Below are positions 4,066-23,255 of a stretch of 32,000 nt of DNA, piece by piece. The position numbers were made by a program, and so were the translations under genes. This DNA is from Pyrobaculum calidifontis JCM 11548 (GTDB taxonomy: Archaea; Thermoproteota; Thermoprotei; Thermoproteales; Thermoproteaceae). Each line of letters opens with the position of its first letter. Positions within the stretch are counted from its first letter, which is position 1. Location: contig NC_009073.1 in assembly GCF_000015805.1 (NCBI RefSeq), positions 1,650,001 to 1,682,000 on the forward strand, in the 5' to 3' direction. Under the pieces are notes generated by a model. The model searched no databases. It was not told the DNA's origin and saw only the letters and a list, made by a program, of their open reading frames with translations.

Positions 4066-4863
4066 GTGGTAGTGGCACTGCCGGCGGACGAGAGGCCTCC
4101 GGTGCCTAAGAAGGACGCGTTGATAGTTTTGGCGGTCCACAGCTACATCCCCTCTCAGGCAAACCCCCGGGCCGAGCTCCTTGAGACAATTTTACAGATC
4201 TTGGAGGGGCGCCACGTGTCGCTTACTTTCTCGATGCCTAAGTCCTACTTTGAAAAGGCCGTGAAAGTGATGGGGCTAGACAAACTGGCGGCTAAGTACG
4301 GCGCCAAGATAGTGATGCCGCATCAAAGTGCCACATATAGGCTGGAGCTTCAGTCGCCTCTGGGCAACAAGGTCCGCGTAAGAGCCCTCGAGGCAGCCTT
4401 CGACGAGTCACTACTGAAGATAGTCGTTGCGATGCCCGTCAGCCACCCCCAGACCATTCTCTACTCCACGATGACCACCGCCGCGTTGCAGATACTGGAG
4501 CCGAAAGATTCGCAAAACCTCTACGAGGGGTTCAGGGCCTTGTACAAGTACATCGCAGACATATACAAGCTGGAGAAAAACACCCTCTGCATCGCCGACG
4601 GGAAGTACGTCATCGAGGGAGACGGCCCCATCAAGGGCTTCCAGCGCTACTGGGGGGTGCAAGTGGTGGGCGAGAACTGCGCAGAGGTGGACTACGTCGT
4701 CGCGAGGGGGCTGGGGGTAGACCCGGGGGACTTGGGCTACCTCTACTTCTACTACGATGGGGCAATACCCAAGATCGACGTTCCAGAGCTCGTCGAGAAG
4801 AACCGGCTAAATATTAAACTGACGAGCAACGTTGGCATACTGCTCAGTTGGAAGAAAGGCTGA
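4066..4863 (+). CDS. DUF362-like protein (function unknown)
   Basis: 265-aa ORF with a GTG start about 22 nt downstream of TTATTTTA. The strings CIADGKYVIEGDGPIKG and VVGENCAEVDYVVARGLGVDPGDLGYL resemble the conserved C-terminal half of DUF362 proteins. Confidence 0.55.
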   Translation: MVVALPADERPPVPKKDALIVLAVHSYIPSQANPRAELLETILQILEGRHVSLTFSMPKSYFEKAVKVMGLDKLAAKYGAKIVMPHQSATYRLELQSPLGNKVRVRALEAAFDESLLKIVVAMPVSHPQTILYSTMTTAALQILEPKDSQNLYEGFRALYKYIADIYKLEKNTLCIADGKYVIEGDGPIKGFQRYWGVQVVGENCAEVDYVVARGLGVDPGDLGYLYFYYDGAIPKIDVPELVEKNRLNIKLTSNVGILLSWKKG

Positions 4864-12817: not shown

Positions 12818-12853
12818 GGCGTTAGAAACATATTTCCGTATAAAAATTCAGCC

Positions 12854-12902
12854 GTGATGAAGTTGGTCTTTTCAGAGGCGTGAAGAGGGGAACGAATGCT
12901 GA
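12854..12902 (+). ncRNA. C/D-box sRNA candidate
   Basis: The layout is an exact 7+12+4+3+7+12+4 archaeal arrangement. C box GTGATGA is at 12854-12860, followed by a 12-nt guide. D' CAGA is at 12873-12876, followed by a 3-nt spacer. C' GTGAAGA is at 12880-12886, followed by a 12-nt guide. D box CTGA is at 12899-12902. No terminal stem is evident. Confidence 0.5.
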
Positions 12903-12924
12903 TCCGACCCCCTCCTCCGCCCTG

Positions 12925-13172
12925 GGTTCCCCCGTGGGCGGGTCATTGGTTCCCCGCATCTATTCGTTGCCACATCTGTCATCTGCGGGGCAGTCGGGGA
13001 GGCCTGACTACCCCCATGTCGCAAGCCCGGGGGCGATCCCCCAGGCGACAACCCATGAGCGCGCCTCCCTCACCCTAATATTTATTAAACAACGGGGATC
13101 AAAGCGATCAGTGGGAAAAAAGCGGGGGGTGCCCAACCTCTTGCAAGCCTTTTTTCAATGTTTAACAGTGCC
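12925..13172 (-). ncRNA. Omega-RNA-like / right-end structured module, copy A
   Basis: It is homologous to 17368-17610. The core 12991-13062 matches 17431-17502 at 64 of 72 positions without gaps. Helices: P1 12943-12951/13050-13058; P2 12952-12958/12984-12990; P3 12996-13001/about 13008-13015; P4 13025-13033/13038-13046. The strand is assigned from the tnpB orientation and a TATA-like box, not proven. Confidence 0.4.
13076..13089 (-). promoter_or_regulatory. TATA-like box overlapping the tnpB stop codon, upstream of module A
   Basis: The minus strand reads TTTAATAAATATTA. Its centre is about 26 nt upstream of the first nucleotide of helix P1 (13058). An equivalent box occupies the same relative position in copy B. 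Confidence 0.35.
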
Positions 13173-13393
13173 ACTACGTCTCTCCAAGCCTCGAAGCCAC
13201 ATGTTGTGCACTTCATTCTTCTGTGTCCCACTTCTTCCATTTTCCTGCAGCACTTGGTGCGCGTTGTGGACGCGCCGCTTGGGTCCACCTCGACTACCAT
13301 CACGCCGCGCTTCGCGGCTTGCCACTTGGAGAGGAGGAGAAGGGCTGAACAAAGAAGAGAAGAGAGTTGAGACACGGATTCGTCTTCTTCCAA
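13085..13393 (-). pseudogene. tnpB: TnpB (IS605 OrfB / RuvC-like RNA-guided nuclease family) C-terminal fragment
   Basis: The fragment GVMVVEVDPSGASTTRTKCCRKMEEVGHRRMKCTTCGFEAWRDVVALLNIEKR matches the TnpB C-terminal pattern: V-DP--TS--C--CG...C--CGF--RD--AA-NI. The first zinc-finger half is degraded and the N-terminal roughly 300 aa are missing. Confidence 0.75.
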
Positions 13394-13460
13394 TTTTACT
13401 CTTCTTCAATAGTTTAAGAGGAATGGAGAATGTTGATAAATCCGGGCCTTCGCCCGCTTA

Positions 13461-14198
13461 ATGATAAAGGTGGTCCTTCACCACACATGTAAGTCGTCGT
13501 ATAACCTCTACAAGGCGCTACGCGGCGTGGCAGGCGTGGAGTTTGAAATGGCCGAGGCGCCCTACTTCCACTACTTGGCCAACTACGTCTTAAGCGTGCC
13601 GGCCGTATTTCTCGACGGGAGGCTCGTGTTGCTAGACCCCGTCGAGCCAGAGGACGTGCTCGCGCTAAGAGACGGCAAGACAGAGAAGGAACTAGCTGTA
13701 GACGAGGCTGTTGAAAATTTTGTAAATGGAGTTATGGCGAGTCAAGCCATCTTATCCGCCGTTGTTTTACACAAGTCGCTTAAGCCAATTCTGTTGCCGG
13801 AGCTAGTCGCAGTGCTCTCCCGGGCCAGATACCACGGACAGGAGCACAAGACTCCGCAGATAATGGAGGCGCTGAGGGAAAGGGAGAGAGGTATCTTGGA
13901 GGAGCGCTGGGAGCGCTTAATTAAGGTGTTGACGTTCGGCATGGTTAGAGAAATGTTTTGGCTCGGCATAGACGTGGACAAGGTCGAGAAGTCCCACGTG
14001 AAAATGTGGCTACTCGCAAAAGCCACTGTGGGGAGGCTGGGCCTCCCATACCCAAGGCCAGATGTCCCAAGCGACGTGGCCGACGCAGTGTACAACGTCT
14101 TGAGAGAATCCGGAAAGAGGTACATGGAGAAGGTGGCGGAAGAGCAGGGGCAGATTTTAAACGACGCAGAGTTCCTCTCATTATACAGGAACAAATAG
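13461..14198 (+). CDS. Hypothetical protein with an N-terminal thioredoxin/glutaredoxin-like fold lacking CxxC
   Basis: 245-aa ORF. The N-terminus (KVVLHHTCKSSYNLYKAL...SVPAVFLDGRLV) resembles small redoxins but has TCKSS where CxxC is expected. The C-terminal roughly 160 aa are helical and unrecognised. A TATA-like box (GTTGATAAATCC) lies about 26 nt upstream. Confidence 0.55.
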   Translation: MIKVVLHHTCKSSYNLYKALRGVAGVEFEMAEAPYFHYLANYVLSVPAVFLDGRLVLLDPVEPEDVLALRDGKTEKELAVDEAVENFVNGVMASQAILSAVVLHKSLKPILLPELVAVLSRARYHGQEHKTPQIMEALRERERGILEERWERLIKVLTFGMVREMFWLGIDVDKVEKSHVKMWLLAKATVGRLGLPYPRPDVPSDVADAVYNVLRESGKRYMEKVAEEQGQILNDAEFLSLYRNK

Positions 14199-17341: not shown

Positions 17342-17367
17342 GTTCTCACTGACTTCTTCCATCTCAA

Positions 17368-17610
17368 GTTGTTCCGGGGCGGGTCATTGGTTCCCCCCAT
17401 TGGTCGGGGTTTCATCCGTCATTTGGGGGGCGGTCGGGGAGGCCGGACTCCCCCCATGTCGCATGCCCGGGGGCGACTCCCCAGGCAACAACCCATGAAC
17501 GCAACTCCCACCCACCCTATATTGATTAAACAGAGGGAATCAAAGCCACAGGTGGGAAAAATGGGGTCTTCGCCCAGTCCTCCGTGACGTTATTCAACTT
17601 TACTTTATCT
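17368..17610 (-). ncRNA. Omega-RNA-like / right-end structured module, copy B
   Basis: Helices: P1 17384-17392/17490-17498; P2 17393-17399/17424-17430; P3 17436-17441/17448-17453; P4 17465-17473/17478-17486. The architecture is the same as in copy A. Confidence 0.4.
17518..17530 (-). promoter_or_regulatory. TATA-like box upstream of module B
   Basis: The minus strand reads TTTAATCAATATA. Its centre is about 26 nt upstream of the outer end of P1 (17498), the same spacing as in copy A. Confidence 0.35.
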
Positions 17611-18315
17611 AGAAATGGCGTATTCTGGCTTGGAGCTCCTTTCCCTTACTCCACGGCGGGCGGTGCGTCGTAGAGCGCTTCTTGGCGAGACGTTCCGCCT
17701 GTCTCCACAGCCGCACAGCCTTTCCACCGGCGTCTCCACCTTTTTCATCCACTGGGAATTGCCGTAGTAGACATACCGTTTGTTTATGTTAACAGTGATT
17801 ACGCCCCTCGGCGTGATTGGCATAGGCCTTGGAATTTCCACCGATATGTAGAGGGACAAGTTGCCGCCGCGGTAGACCAGCCTAGCCTCCCTCCATTCTC
17901 CTTCCTTGTACCTCTCCTCCATGCCCACAATTCTCGTCCTATGCCCACCCGTTACATGGAGGTAGCCGTCTTTGACGCTGTAGGCGTCTCTGCGTAGCCG
18001 CATGTGCAACTTCCTCACTACTGGCGTCTTGCCCCTAGCTCCCTTAGCTATATACGACTTCACCACGGCCAACGCCTCTCTGTAGCATTCTTGTGCAATT
18101 ACCGACGGCAGTCCCATGGCCTTCAGCGGCTCGTAGAGGGCCTTGTGCATCTCGGATAGCGTAGGCCCATGTCCCTTTGCCCTCGCCTCTTCTACGGCCC
18201 ACTTTATCGCCATGTTTAACCCGCCGCGGTACCTCTTCAGCAACTCGATCAACTCCGGCGTGGGCTCCACCTTGGCCTTCACGGTGGCTAACAGCTTGTC
18301 TTTTCCACAAGCCAT
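17605..18315 (-). pseudogene. tnpB: TnpB (IS605 OrfB family) N-terminal portion, frameshifted and truncated
   Basis: The 236-aa ORF (LKRYRGGLNMAIKWAVEEA...GLPSVIAQECYREALAVVKSY...RGVITVNINKRYVYYGN) follows the archaeal OrfB N-terminal and RuvC-I layout. The last roughly 40 codons read more OrfB-like in another frame (AVRLWRQAERLAKKRSTTHRPPWSKGKELQARIRHF*). The RuvC-II, zinc-finger and RuvC-III regions are absent. Confidence 0.8.
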
Positions 18316-18506: not shown

Positions 18507-19010
18507 ATGTGGGGTATGAGAGTTTGGAGTGGCGTGGGGAGTAGGTTGCAAGAGAGAGTACGTCGCCTGTACAAAAAGGCGAGGGGCATAGTGGAGGACT
18601 TGGCGAGGAAGACGGCGGTGAAGGCTGTGGCCTTGTCTCTGGCCGTGTTGGTGGGCGTGGTGCTGTTGGTCGACGTATTGCTCCTTTTCGTCGCGGCGGC
18701 GGGCATAGACTTGCCGTCCCTCGCCTACCGCGTCCCGGGGGCCAAGGGCTTTACTTACTACTCCGAGCCCCTCCTCGTCGCTGTGCCAGCCGCCGCCCTC
18801 GCCCTACTCGCAGCCAAGACCCGCAACCCCCGCCTCATGCTCTACCTCGACGCAGCTTTGTTCACAGCCGTGTTACTGGCGATGTCAGCCACATCCTTGG
18901 CCTTCTGCACCTTCTGCGCCCAGCAGTGCCACGAGCAGGGGCTTAAGTGCGGCTACGTCGAACTCGGCACCCTCTACATGTCAATCGACCCGTGCAAGTG
19001 CAAATCTTAG
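18507..19010 (+). CDS. Hypothetical membrane protein with a Cys-rich C-terminus
   Basis: 167-aa ORF with about 3 hydrophobic segments and the C-terminal string CTFCAQQCHEQGLKCG...DPCKCKS. No recognisable family. Confidence 0.5.
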   Translation: MWGMRVWSGVGSRLQERVRRLYKKARGIVEDLARKTAVKAVALSLAVLVGVVLLVDVLLLFVAAAGIDLPSLAYRVPGAKGFTYYSEPLLVAVPAAALALLAAKTRNPRLMLYLDAALFTAVLLAMSATSLAFCTFCAQQCHEQGLKCGYVELGTLYMSIDPCKCKS

Positions 19011-19068
19011 ACTAACAGATTTGAAAATCCAAACCCAAATACCATCTCCCTTTCACCACTTTCAAGCA

Positions 19069-19346
19069 CTCACAATCCTCTTCCTGAGATTCTCAAATTA
19101 TGAACGGCGTTACGGGTAGGTAGTGGGATGTTCCAATTCTCTTCTTTGAGATTCACCCGGGAGGCAGTGTATATACAACGCATTAGCGTATTCCTTTCAA
19201 TCCTCTTCCGGAGATTCGATAAACATGGCCGCAAACGCCTCCAAGGACGACGTGTACTCTTTCAATCCTCTTCTTGAGATTCACACCCGCTTCTTGGACG
19301 ACGCCATTGACAGAAGCTGCACCTTTCAATCCTCCTCTTGAGATTC
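19069..19346 (-). CRISPR. Orphan CRISPR mini-array (5 repeats, 4 spacers)
   Basis: Repeats on the + strand are as follows. R1 19069-19092 CTCACAATCCTCTTCCTGAGATTC. R2 19130-19154 GTTCCAATTCTCTTCTTTGAGATTC (25 nt). R3 19194-19217 CTTTCAATCCTCTTCCGGAGATTC. R4 19259-19282 CTTTCAATCCTCTTCTTGAGATTC. R5 19323-19346 CTTTCAATCCTCCTCTTGAGATTC. Spacers are 37, 39, 41 and 40 nt and are unrelated to each other. The reverse complement ends in GGATTGAAAG, the 8-nt crRNA 5' handle ATTGAAAG, so transcription is on the minus strand. Confidence 0.85.
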
Positions 19347-19440
19347 TATGTTTCTTAGGTATCGTTTTTGGTTGTTTTTAAGTTTTTCTTTAGCTGTTTT
19401 GTGGAGCGATGTAGAGACTTCTCGTGATCACTTCCTTTGC
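19347..19440 (-). promoter_or_regulatory. Putative CRISPR leader
   Basis: An A/T-rich tract (+ strand TATGTTTCTTAGGTATCGTTTTTGGTTGTTTTTAAGTTTTTCTTTAGCTGTTTTG) abuts the best-conserved end of the array. Repeat degeneracy increases away from it, as expected for a leader-proximal to trailer polarity. Confidence 0.45.
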
Positions 19441-22550: not shown

Positions 22551-23190
22551 GCTTACAGGCAGAATTTTCGACGAAGAAGACCTCGTGGCCAAATACGCAG
22601 CTATAATAAGGCGCATAGGCGGAAAAGTGGCCGTGGTAACTGGAGGCGGCGAAGTGGCGAGGAGGTACATAGCCATGGCGCGAAAGGGCGGCGCCTCCAA
22701 CACTTTCCAAGACCTGCTAGGGATATACGCCAGCCGGCTAAACGCCCTCCTGTTAATTTCGCTAATCGGCGACGACGCCTACCCAAAGGCCCCCTCAACA
22801 GTGGAAGAGTTCCTCGACGCGTGGAGGAGGCACCGCGTCGTGGTGGCCGGGGGCTTTCAGCCGGGGCAATCCACGGCGACTGTGGCAGCCCTCGTGGCAG
22901 AGGCGGCGGGCGCCTCTGTCCTCCTCAACGCGGCAAATATCGACGCCGTGTACGACGACGACCCCAGGAGAAACCCCAACGCTAGAAAAATACCGACGCT
23001 TACATACGACGAGCTTGAGAGAATTCTAAAAACAAGCGTCGTGCCAGGGGGCTACGAGCTCGTTGACCCTTGGAGTATATCAATACTGCGGAGGAACTGC
23101 GTGACTACATACATATTCGACGGAAGGAGGCCGGAATATGTCGAAGAAATACTGCGGGGTGGGAACCCCGGTAGCAAAATAACGTGTTGA
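22537..23190 (+). CDS. pyrH: Uridylate (UMP) kinase, archaeal type
   Basis: 217-aa amino-acid-kinase fold with LKLTGRIF, AVVTGGGEVARRYI, VVAGGFQPGQSTATVAAL and LLNAANIDAVYDDDP. Confidence 0.9.
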   Translation: MLVLKLTGRIFDEEDLVAKYAAIIRRIGGKVAVVTGGGEVARRYIAMARKGGASNTFQDLLGIYASRLNALLLISLIGDDAYPKAPSTVEEFLDAWRRHRVVVAGGFQPGQSTATVAALVAEAAGASVLLNAANIDAVYDDDPRRNPNARKIPTLTYDELERILKTSVVPGGYELVDPWSISILRRNCVTTYIFDGRRPEYVEEILRGGNPGSKITC

Positions 23191-23255
23191 CCCCGCGGCA
23201 GGGGGCTCGCTCATAGGGGCCGCGTCGGGCCTCTTTAAGCCCCCCACCCGCGGGA
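23191..23255 (+). other. Nested GC-rich hairpin directly after the pyrH stop codon
   Basis: Three coaxial stems: 23192-23198/23248-23254 (CCCGCGG/CCGCGGG), 23201-23207/23238-23244 (GGGGGCT/AGCCCCC) and 23216-23221/23228-23233 (GGGGCC/GGCCTC). T-rich tracts follow (TGTTTT, GTTTTCTTTCC). Confidence 0.45.

Follow-up and report, generated by a model that had tools for sequence, protein, structure and literature searches.

Two copies of a non-coding block on the minus strand of Pyrobaculum calidifontis JCM 11548 DNA (contig NC_009073.1, positions 1,650,001 to 1,682,000; these 32,000 nucleotides are hereafter the window, within which window coordinates are counted) are very probably the right-end parts of two dead IS200/IS605-family elements of the TnpB-only (IS1341) type. 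These blocks, copies A and B, would encode the scaffold of a guide RNA for TnpB. Such RNAs go by the names of omega RNA and reRNA, and in archaea they are also called sotRNA or HgcC-like RNA. This reading relies on the occurrence of the same module beside intact tnpB genes, on the covariation of its helices and on the distribution of changes in the two copies.

A guide-RNA module at the right end of tnpB elements

In the window, positions 12991-13062 (copy A) and 17431-17502 (copy B) are identical at 64 of 72 positions without any gap, a direct repeat that an initial annotation of this DNA had reported and that was re-measured here. Clear homology covers about 12936-13125 and 17378-17570, and the similarity is weaker further out. 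TCATTGGTT is found at 12943 and 17384, AACCCATGA at 13050 and 17490, CCCCGCA at 12952 and TGCGGGG at 12984. Every motif of the initial annotation was re-found in its place, including the A/T-rich boxes (13076-13089 and 17518-17530). Its placement of both copies on the minus strand, adjoining decayed tnpB genes and in the region expected for a right-end omega RNA, also holds.

For comparison, the close family was represented by nine intact relatives with complete 3′ flanks (L067-L070, L072 and L142-L145), which are known from other metagenome contigs. Whether intact tnpB copies carry the module had been put forward as a check: it is present in all nine, in identical order, ends in GGUCGG and is followed by unrelated flanks. 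From 5′ to 3′, the tnpB stop codon is followed by the A/T box, a hypervariable spacer of about 20 nucleotides (nt), CAUGGGUUG, the hairpins P4, P3 and P2, the linker AACCAAUGA, P5 and the tail. P5 (CCGCCC...GGGCGG) is a short stem with a 13-nt loop in this family, and the tail is purine-rich before it finishes in GGUCGG. The tnpB frame itself stops about 70 nt before P3.

The right end, located as the point of flank divergence in more than 80 loci, is at 12904 in copy A and at 17349 in copy B. The 3′ boundary of the initial annotation has therefore to be extended by about 30 nt, through hairpin P5 and the tail. In all loci, the sequence after GGUCRG is unrelated from one locus to another. This agrees with the proposal that a variable guide follows the module, but such a guide would start past 12904 and 17349 and not at 12925 and 17368. 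A covariance model built from 28 diverse cores (R1) recognizes exactly two places in the window, 12904-13016 (107.1 bits, E 8e-22) and 17349-17456 (77.8 bits). Intact close relatives score from 90.7 to 118 bits, so that copy B lies below all of them.

A scan with Rfam gave no family matching copy A or copy B, and the exact 20-mer GGGGAACCAATGACCCGCCC of the module has no match in 185,579 species genomes nor in viral contigs. The same 22.5 kb occur at 100% identity in several hot-spring metagenome assemblies. The four host contigs compared to the window are 100% identical to it, the apparent 21-nt difference in L139 being a run of N.

Comparative support for the RNA structure

P2, P3 and P4, three hairpins already proposed in the initial annotation, are present and paired in all 11 close-family copies. 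P4 is 99% paired in these copies, with one pair found as U-G, C-G and U-A; it is specific to the close family and supported there. The other elements were examined in a larger covariation test with 83 distinct sequences from six archaeal lineages. In this set, 92% of the cells of the proposed structure are paired, as compared to 43-59% in slid controls. Pairs changed on both sides number 15, against 6.9 in shuffles, and none of 500 shuffles reaches 15. Several compensatory pairs are observed in each of P2, P3 and P5. In addition, a six-nucleotide segment of the P3 loop can pair with the final six nucleotides of the element. The strands of this pseudoknot are CUGACC/GGUCAG in most lineages and CCGGCC/GGUCGG in the close family; it is 96.7% paired, and one of its pairs is U-A in 60 sequences and C-G in 9. 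Covariation thus supports P2, P3, the terminal hairpin P5 and the pseudoknot. Single-sequence folding of the copies is no better than that of shuffled sequence (z from -1.4 to 0.0) and, with such GC-rich sequence, is uninformative, so that the structural evidence is comparative only. On the plus strand, the frequent G-U pairs would turn into C-A mismatches, which assigns the structure to the tnpB strand.

Two other helices were considered and rejected. A nested helix CGAC/GUCG predicted by RNAalifold is 71% paired, no better than shuffles, and the pseudoknot was preferred to it. The closing helix P1, around which the initial annotation had built a four-helix model, is 77.8% paired; one of its positions never pairs, no compensation is seen and the RNAalifold prediction lacks it. 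Its 5′ strand varies among intact copies (ACAUGCGUU, AUAUGCGUU) in ways that break pairs. Its 3′ strand is conserved in lineages having no 5′ partner and is partly missing in Archaeoglobales copies. The model closed by P1 has to be abandoned.

The exchange in P2 between CCCCGCA/UGCGGGG (copy A) and CCCCCCA/UGGGGGG (copy B) had been taken as a sign of selection on structure. It is genuine covariation, but the A type is common to L072 and L142-L145 and the B type to L067-L070, which makes it a subfamily difference older than both insertions and no evidence of selection acting on A and B. The two copies belong by descent to separate subfamilies and did not arise by local duplication. The P2 loop, described initially as drifted, is in fact nearly identical within L072 and L142-L145 for the A type, and likewise within L067-L070 for the B type; when distant lineages are compared, its consensus GAUGACAGAUGUAAACCCGAAUAGA ranks with the best-conserved segments.

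The tnpB remnants and their intact relatives

Beside copy A, only a C-terminal part of tnpB is left. It gives a partial match to NCBIfam guided_TnpB, tblastn aligns it with residues 301-374 of P0037, and its zinc-finger cysteines are substituted. The gene has lost its N-terminal three quarters and the element its left end, and no left-end similarity was found upstream of copy A. Copy B retains about 235 tnpB codons. Residues 1-216 are in frame, a frameshift is located near residue 200-216 and the sequence continues up to about residue 235; roughly residues 236-362 are removed by an internal deletion, and the final 17 codons or so remain in another frame (about 17533-17585).

A short inverted tnpB fragment of about 30 codons lies just past the N-terminus of copy B, within a hydrophobic open reading frame (ORF) of 167 amino acids. 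In tblastn, its matches have 55-76% identity (up to 76% to P0006), the lowest E value being 7e-11 for a small search space. The fragment may be part of copy B that was rearranged, or else a third remnant. Since its residue range overlaps what copy B retains, a simple inversion does not suffice to explain it.

Intact relatives, with TnpB proteins of 379-388 amino acids, are abundant in hot-spring metagenomes. They score 112.3 bits with guided_TnpB (curated cut-off 100) and keep the D/E/D motifs of the RuvC domain; the contigs that carry them also carry PaREP1 and PyrR209. In the window, a tblastn search found no intact close-family tnpB: both genes are truncated or internally deleted, and cognate intact TnpBs are those of the other metagenome contigs. 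Several unrelated upstream subgroups occur among the intact elements, and neither their left-end boundary nor their transposon-adjacent motif could be defined. At L071 (about 4140-4260), a 379-codon tnpB is intact next to a module internally deleted from just after P4 to the 3′ strand of P5, P3 through P5 being gone. L071 is a nuclease without scaffold, the mirror image of copies A and B.

Decay rather than retention

The initial annotation had considered the survival of the module after decay of the nuclease gene as unusual. The comparison does not show it to be so: the module is found in intact elements as well. Module identity is 84-93% between intact copies, 81-91% between copy A and intact copies and 77-86% between copy B and intact copies, whereas the tnpB coding sequences of intact copies are 74-82% identical. 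In active elements, the module was already the part that evolved most slowly.

Private changes were counted in 114 columns, those in which the nine intact copies do not vary. Copy A has 2 of them, copy B 10 and the intact copies 0-3. Those of copy A are a G to U change at 13010, closing P3, and a C to A change at 13005, in the pseudoknot. Those of copy B are nine G-to-A or C-to-T transitions and one deletion; eight transitions and the deletion, 9 of the 10 changes, fall in P5 and the tail (17349-17377), and the tenth is in P4. Within the close family, pseudoknot mismatches are seen only in A and B. These private changes and mismatches argue for relaxed constraint and not for maintenance: copy B is decaying, and both copies carry pseudoknot-breaking changes of which the intact copies have none. 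From the sequences compared, the retention of A and B would require no selection and gives no sign of a new purpose.

The changes of copy B are tightly clustered in its last 30 nt or so, the 100 nt upstream being 96% identical to L069. Damage of the deamination type, or a patch from a diverged donor, is a possible cause of this clustering.

The A/T box as a candidate promoter

The A/T box noted initially in both copies (TTTAATAAATATTA in A, TTTAATCAATATA in B) turns out to be a conserved feature of the family. It is found, as TTAATCAATATAA and variants, in all nine intact relatives, and in L145 it is even part of the coding sequence, instead of following the stop codon as elsewhere. The spacer after it, about 20 nt long, is variable and occurs in at least four unrelated versions; then comes the invariant CAUGGGUUG. 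The 3′ edge of the box lies 19-20 nt before the A of CAUGG (13056 and 17496). Host TATA-like boxes in the window (TTTAAATAG, TTAATATAG, TTTAATAAG) end 16-20 nt before leaderless start codons, a comparable spacing. A census of A/T-rich octamers returned 236 clusters, which is too permissive for a statistical test, and was used for the spacing only.

The tnpB genes of this group (L067-L145) have, about 20-35 nt upstream of their start codon, a box TTGATCAAT or TTGTTCAATATAAACC placed at the same distance from ATGGCTTGT. This combination resembles the box and start of the guide-RNA block (TTAATCAATATAAACC ... ATGGGTTGT; the promoter and start of the guide RNA may also be written TTAATCAAT...ATGGGTTGT, to be compared to TTGATCAAT...ATGGCTTGT for tnpB). 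The overall identity of the two upstream regions is not significant (17-22 of 60 positions, control fraction 0.02-0.29); the type of box, the spacing and ATGG(C/G)TTG are what they have in common. The two boxes may represent a duplicated promoter module. A dedicated guide-RNA promoter, which would be a property of the whole family, is a reasonable proposal, with chances about evenly balanced.

A wider archaeal family and nuclease-less modules

The 3′ part of the module, about 113 nt from P3 to the right end, is 75-85% identical beside TnpBs sharing only 41-49% amino acid identity. A degenerate pattern search in species-representative genomes detected 64 loci, which belong to Desulfurococcales, Sulfolobales, Archaeoglobales, Thermoproteaceae, Methanomethylicota and Korarchaeia. 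In distant relatives (L011-L053 and many genome loci, such as L023 at 2436-2600), the tnpB frame stays open through the whole scaffold and beyond the right end, into the flank, giving a tail ...PTAPQMTDVNPNRCGEPMNPLKGTLALQGGEEV followed by flank-encoded residues. It follows that the C-terminus of the protein differs at every insertion site, and the conserved 'protein motif' of these tails probably reflects a constraint at the RNA level.

Among 49 evaluable genomic cores, 23 have no TnpB body upstream; ordinary host genes stand there, and the scores are as good as those of linked cores. Many of these nuclease-less cores are preceded by clear TATA-like boxes and, in one type, also by a second UUCA hairpin. 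By their sequence, they look like fusions of a left and a right end, PATE-like, or like stand-alone RNA genes with their own promoters. Two TnpB-less types were noticed, both in Desulfurococcales and related metagenome-assembled genomes. Members of the first (L097, L109, L134, L074, L107, L121) carry the second hairpin CCUCGCCC-UUCA-GGGCGGGG, continued by the boxes ATTTATAAGCC and TTTAATCTTTAT and by a 22-nt hairpin directly before P3. Those of the other type (L080, L081, L085, L075, L087, L120, L122, L131, L132) have, upstream, a palindromic AAAGCTTATAAGCTTT box and a long GUGGUUGC...GCAACCAC stem.

Neighbouring features and coordinates

The coordinates of the two copies and of the features surrounding them are collected in Table 1. 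The 3′ end of a textbook C/D box small RNA (sRNA) gene abuts the right end of copy A, with the consequence that the would-be guide, from 12903 down to 12884, is perfectly antisense to the D-guide and the D box of this sRNA. Rfam matches of the latter are sub-threshold only (sR44, 20.5 bits). The 193-amino acid plus-strand ORF that crosses module A is almost certainly spurious. Repeats of the mini CRISPR array match Rfam CRISPR-DR45, one of them at threshold.

Table 1. Positions, in the window, of the parts of copies A and B and of nearby features.
Feature	Position	Strand	Description
Copy A would-be guide flank	12884-12903	-	outside the element, next to its right end; antisense to the C/D box sRNA beside it (3′ half)
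Copy A scaffold core	12904-13016	-	113 nt; R1, covariation, flank divergence
Copy A pseudoknot	5′ strand 13001-13006; 3′ strand 12904-12909	-	3′ strand GGUCGG is the right end
Copy A P5	12936-12941 with 12917-12922	-	
Copy A linker AACCAAUGA	12943-12951	-	
Copy A P2	12984-12990 with 12952-12958	-	encloses the conserved 25-nt loop
Copy A P3	13011-13014 with 12996-12999	-	
Copy A P4 hairpin	13025-13046	-	GCCUGGGGG-AUCG-CCCCCGGGC; close-family-specific 5′ extension
Copy A UCAUGGGUU	13050-13058	-	5′ strand of P1 in the initial annotation; start of the conserved block; transcription start predicted near 13056 from box spacing
Copy A A/T box TTTAATAAATATTA	13076-13089	-	overlaps the tnpB stop; candidate TATA box
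Copy A tnpB C-terminal remnant	13085-13393	-	102-amino acid ORF; stop TAA 13085-13087; PF07282, E 3.2e-11
Copy B scaffold core	17349-17456	-	P3 and P2 intact; P5 and pseudoknot tail degraded
Copy B P4 hairpin	17465-17486	-	one private G-to-A change breaks the apical pair
Copy B A/T box TTTAATCAATATA	17518-17530	-	
Copy B tnpB N-terminal remnant	17605-18315	-	128 homologues, best 82% identity; alignment, frame translations, tblastn
Inverted tnpB fragment	18537-18629	+	about residues 225-255, within the 167-amino acid ORF 18507-19010; tblastn
C/D box sRNA gene	12850-12905	+	C box GUGAUGA 12854-12860, 12-nt guide, D′ CAGA
C/D box sRNA, second half		+	C′ GUGAAGA 12880-12886, second 12-nt guide, D box CUGA 12899-12902
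193-amino acid ORF	12880-13461	+	L138 8613-9194; antisense across module A and tnpB remnant; gene call in metagenome annotation
Degenerate mini CRISPR array	19068-19349	+	four repeats of about 24-28 nt (CTTTCAATCCTCTTCYKGAGATTC); spacings 125, 65 and 64 nt
PyrR207	23185-23249	-	Pyrobaculum H/ACA-like sRNA; Rfam, 76.8 bits; points to a Thermoproteaceae host

Proposed role and alternative explanations

Considering the properties of the module, the following scheme may be envisaged. In intact relatives, the RNA would be made from the tnpB strand, and its scaffold of about 113 nt would fold into P3, P2 with its 25-nt loop, and P5. The P3 loop would join the last 6 nt of the element through the pseudoknot, and the DNA that adjoins the right end would supply the guide. 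In analogy to characterized TnpB systems, the TnpB-RNA complex would cut the empty donor site and the element would be restored by recombination. In the Thermoproteaceae-type family, the A/T box, the spacer and P4 in front of the scaffold would probably provide the RNA with its own archaeal promoter. The elements of the window would be relics, A with a nearly intact RNA gene, B lacking an internal part of tnpB and carrying mutations in the 3′ part of its scaffold. Strong constraint while the elements were active, together with limited time since their inactivation, would then account for the resemblance between A and B, and selection at these loci would not.

Some points weigh against the interpretation as relics of guide-RNA genes. 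The compensatory change in the pseudoknot corresponds essentially to one evolutionary event, which separates the close family from the rest. The sequences of the large covariation test were aligned to a model that comprised P2, P3 and P5 and left out the pseudoknot. From sequence alone, we infer transcription, the 5′ end and processing in this organism. Moreover, the RNA gene of copy A, from its A/T box up to the right end, is almost undamaged, and copy A may have a residual function in trans.

Along the lines of the initial annotation, the blocks could instead be autonomous RNA genes, each transcribed from a TATA promoter of its own, that selection has preserved although the nuclease decayed. 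They would work in trans with an intact TnpB elsewhere, or would have been exapted, for instance as antisense to the C/D box sRNA. We hold this to be unlikely. It could account for the conservation of the A/T box even where it is coding, for the hypervariability of the spacer and for a distance from box to block equal to the TATA-to-start distances of the host. The similar box and ATGGCTTGT start upstream of tnpB, the small number of private changes in copy A, the cores without TnpB body that score like linked ones, and the ability of a Sulfolobus islandicus TnpB to accept a guide RNA from a separate locus (PMC11043419) point in the same direction. However, the promoter-like box is a feature of intact elements and not of orphans, the P5 and pseudoknot tail of copy B are destroyed, and the two changes of copy A hit P3 and the pseudoknot, where intact copies show no such changes. 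Because copy A has no left end beside it and copy B is rearranged, neither can excise, and a canonical homing role is moot. In addition, the window holds no intact close-family tnpB, the 20-mer of the module is absent from the species genomes searched, and selection cannot be measured between host strains that are all 100% identical. According to a broader proposal, to which we give little credit, the guide RNA of the Thermoproteaceae TnpB clade would be a separate gene and not a processed tail of the tnpB mRNA. A TATA promoter of its own would stand immediately behind the stop codon of tnpB, and the RNA would be expressible after loss of the nuclease. Copy A would then be an orphan that is still expressed; its guide, perfectly antisense to the D box and D-guide of the C/D box sRNA, would serve a TnpB in trans or act as an antisense RNA.

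It may also be imagined that the hairpins act at the DNA level only, as subterminal palindromes recognized by the Y1 transposase TnpA on single-stranded DNA, and that no functional RNA exists. P5 does lie where IS200/IS605 elements have their right-end palindrome; 7 nt separate it from the 6-nt pseudoknot strand, and 13 nt from the right end. P5 of the distant family has a UUCA 'RE-like tetraloop', read as a retained DNA hairpin by Gomes-Filho et al. (PMC4615843), and the second, similar UUCA hairpin upstream of some TnpB-less copies is what would be expected if left and right ends shared it. The left-end regions of intact copies contain a hairpin CCGCUUAGCGG that is only loosely similar. DNA palindromes would leave unexplained the conservation over 113 nt, the covarying P2 and P3, the invariant 25-nt loop of P2 and the long-range pseudoknot. 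The frequent G-U pairs suit RNA better, the architecture matches a solved omega RNA, and relatives match HgcC, an expressed RNA family. This explanation is very improbable as a whole, and a dual role is possible for P5 alone. Least probable of all is a protein-coding origin of the conservation, either as a C-terminal tail of TnpB or as a small leaderless ORF starting at the ATG of CATGGGTTG. The tnpB frame does span the whole scaffold and the right end in distant relatives (tail ...PTAPQMTDVNPNRCGEPMN...GGEEV), and the close family has an ATG at the predicted start site. In the close family, however, tnpB ends before the scaffold, and 1-nt indels in intact copies (one extra G in L143, one C fewer in L145) break any common frame, on which ground the coding reading was rejected. 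The compensatory changes and the pseudoknot are signals of the RNA level, and the A/T box is conserved whether coding, as in L145, or beyond the stop.

Taken as guide-RNA scaffolds of dead elements, the two copies contribute to a covariation-backed architecture (P3 with its pseudoknot loop, P2, P5 and the pseudoknot tail) for the guide RNA of a TnpB clade widespread in hyperthermophilic archaea, and the analysis links this RNA to HgcC, an old orphan RNA family. The model has some value for annotation, as gene callers put spurious plus-strand ORFs over such modules, and it should help in mining thermostable pairs of TnpB and guide RNA. A dedicated promoter, if confirmed, would add modestly to what is known of guide-RNA production in archaea.

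Comparison with known systems

The best-characterized reference is the omega RNA of ISDra2, with a scaffold of 116 nt in which nt -5 to -3 form a pseudoknot with nt -103 to -105 (PMC10097598). Like it (PMC8612924, PMC10097598), the present module is 3′ of tnpB on the same strand, ends at the right end of the transposon and has the flank as guide. The length is close (about 113 nt as against 116), several stems are present, and the last nucleotides before the guide form a pseudoknot with a segment about 100 nt upstream. On the other hand, there is no detectable sequence similarity to ISDra2, and both nuclease genes of the window are dead. In the close family, moreover, the tnpB frame ends before the scaffold, with the A/T box, the spacer and P4 in between, an arrangement more suggestive of separate transcription than of release from the tnpB mRNA by processing.

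In crenarchaea, an IS605-type TnpB of S. islandicus can use a guide RNA expressed from a separate locus; in the same study, IS1341-type tnpB genes gave no such transcript (PMC11043419). The reRNA of S. islandicus also extends over the last part of the coding sequence and the right end, but its clade is another one and its right end differs (…TTCAC). PATEs (PMC10055086, PMC4615843) likewise carry guide-RNA modules with no functional TnpB beside them, and their omega RNAs require TnpB in trans (PMC10055086). Copies A and B differ from them: A keeps 102 tnpB codons and no left end, B about 235, so that they are decaying full-length elements and not miniature mobile derivatives or left-end/right-end fusions.

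At the 3′ ends of archaeal IS1341-type tnpB genes, sense-overlapping RNAs have been described, together with the HgcC family, intergenic Pyrococcus copies and expressed PATE-derived RNAs (PMC4615843). Distant-family cores give 28-41.9 bits with Rfam HgcC (RF00062) over the full model, below its threshold of 50 (L023, 41.9 bits, E 1.7e-6), and distant members of the superfamily match this model over its whole length, from P3 to slightly beyond the right end. The window copies and the close family do not match HgcC even at E 10. The UUCA hairpin (CCCUCGCCC-UUCA-GGGCGGGG) is present in most distant-family cores and absent from A, B and all close-family copies. As in HgcC and sotRNAs (PMC4615843), the distant members bearing this 'RE-like tetraloop' overlap tnpB in sense or are adjacent to its 3′ end, and also occur as stand-alone intergenic copies. 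In haloarchaeal sotRNAs no BRE-TATA promoter was found, whereas the close family described here conserves a TATA-like box. Guide-RNA modules without an adjacent nuclease are common in related genomes, and such modules have been described before as HgcC, sotRNA and PATE. The module of the window is a Thermoproteaceae-type member of this known kind of RNA and not a new class of system.

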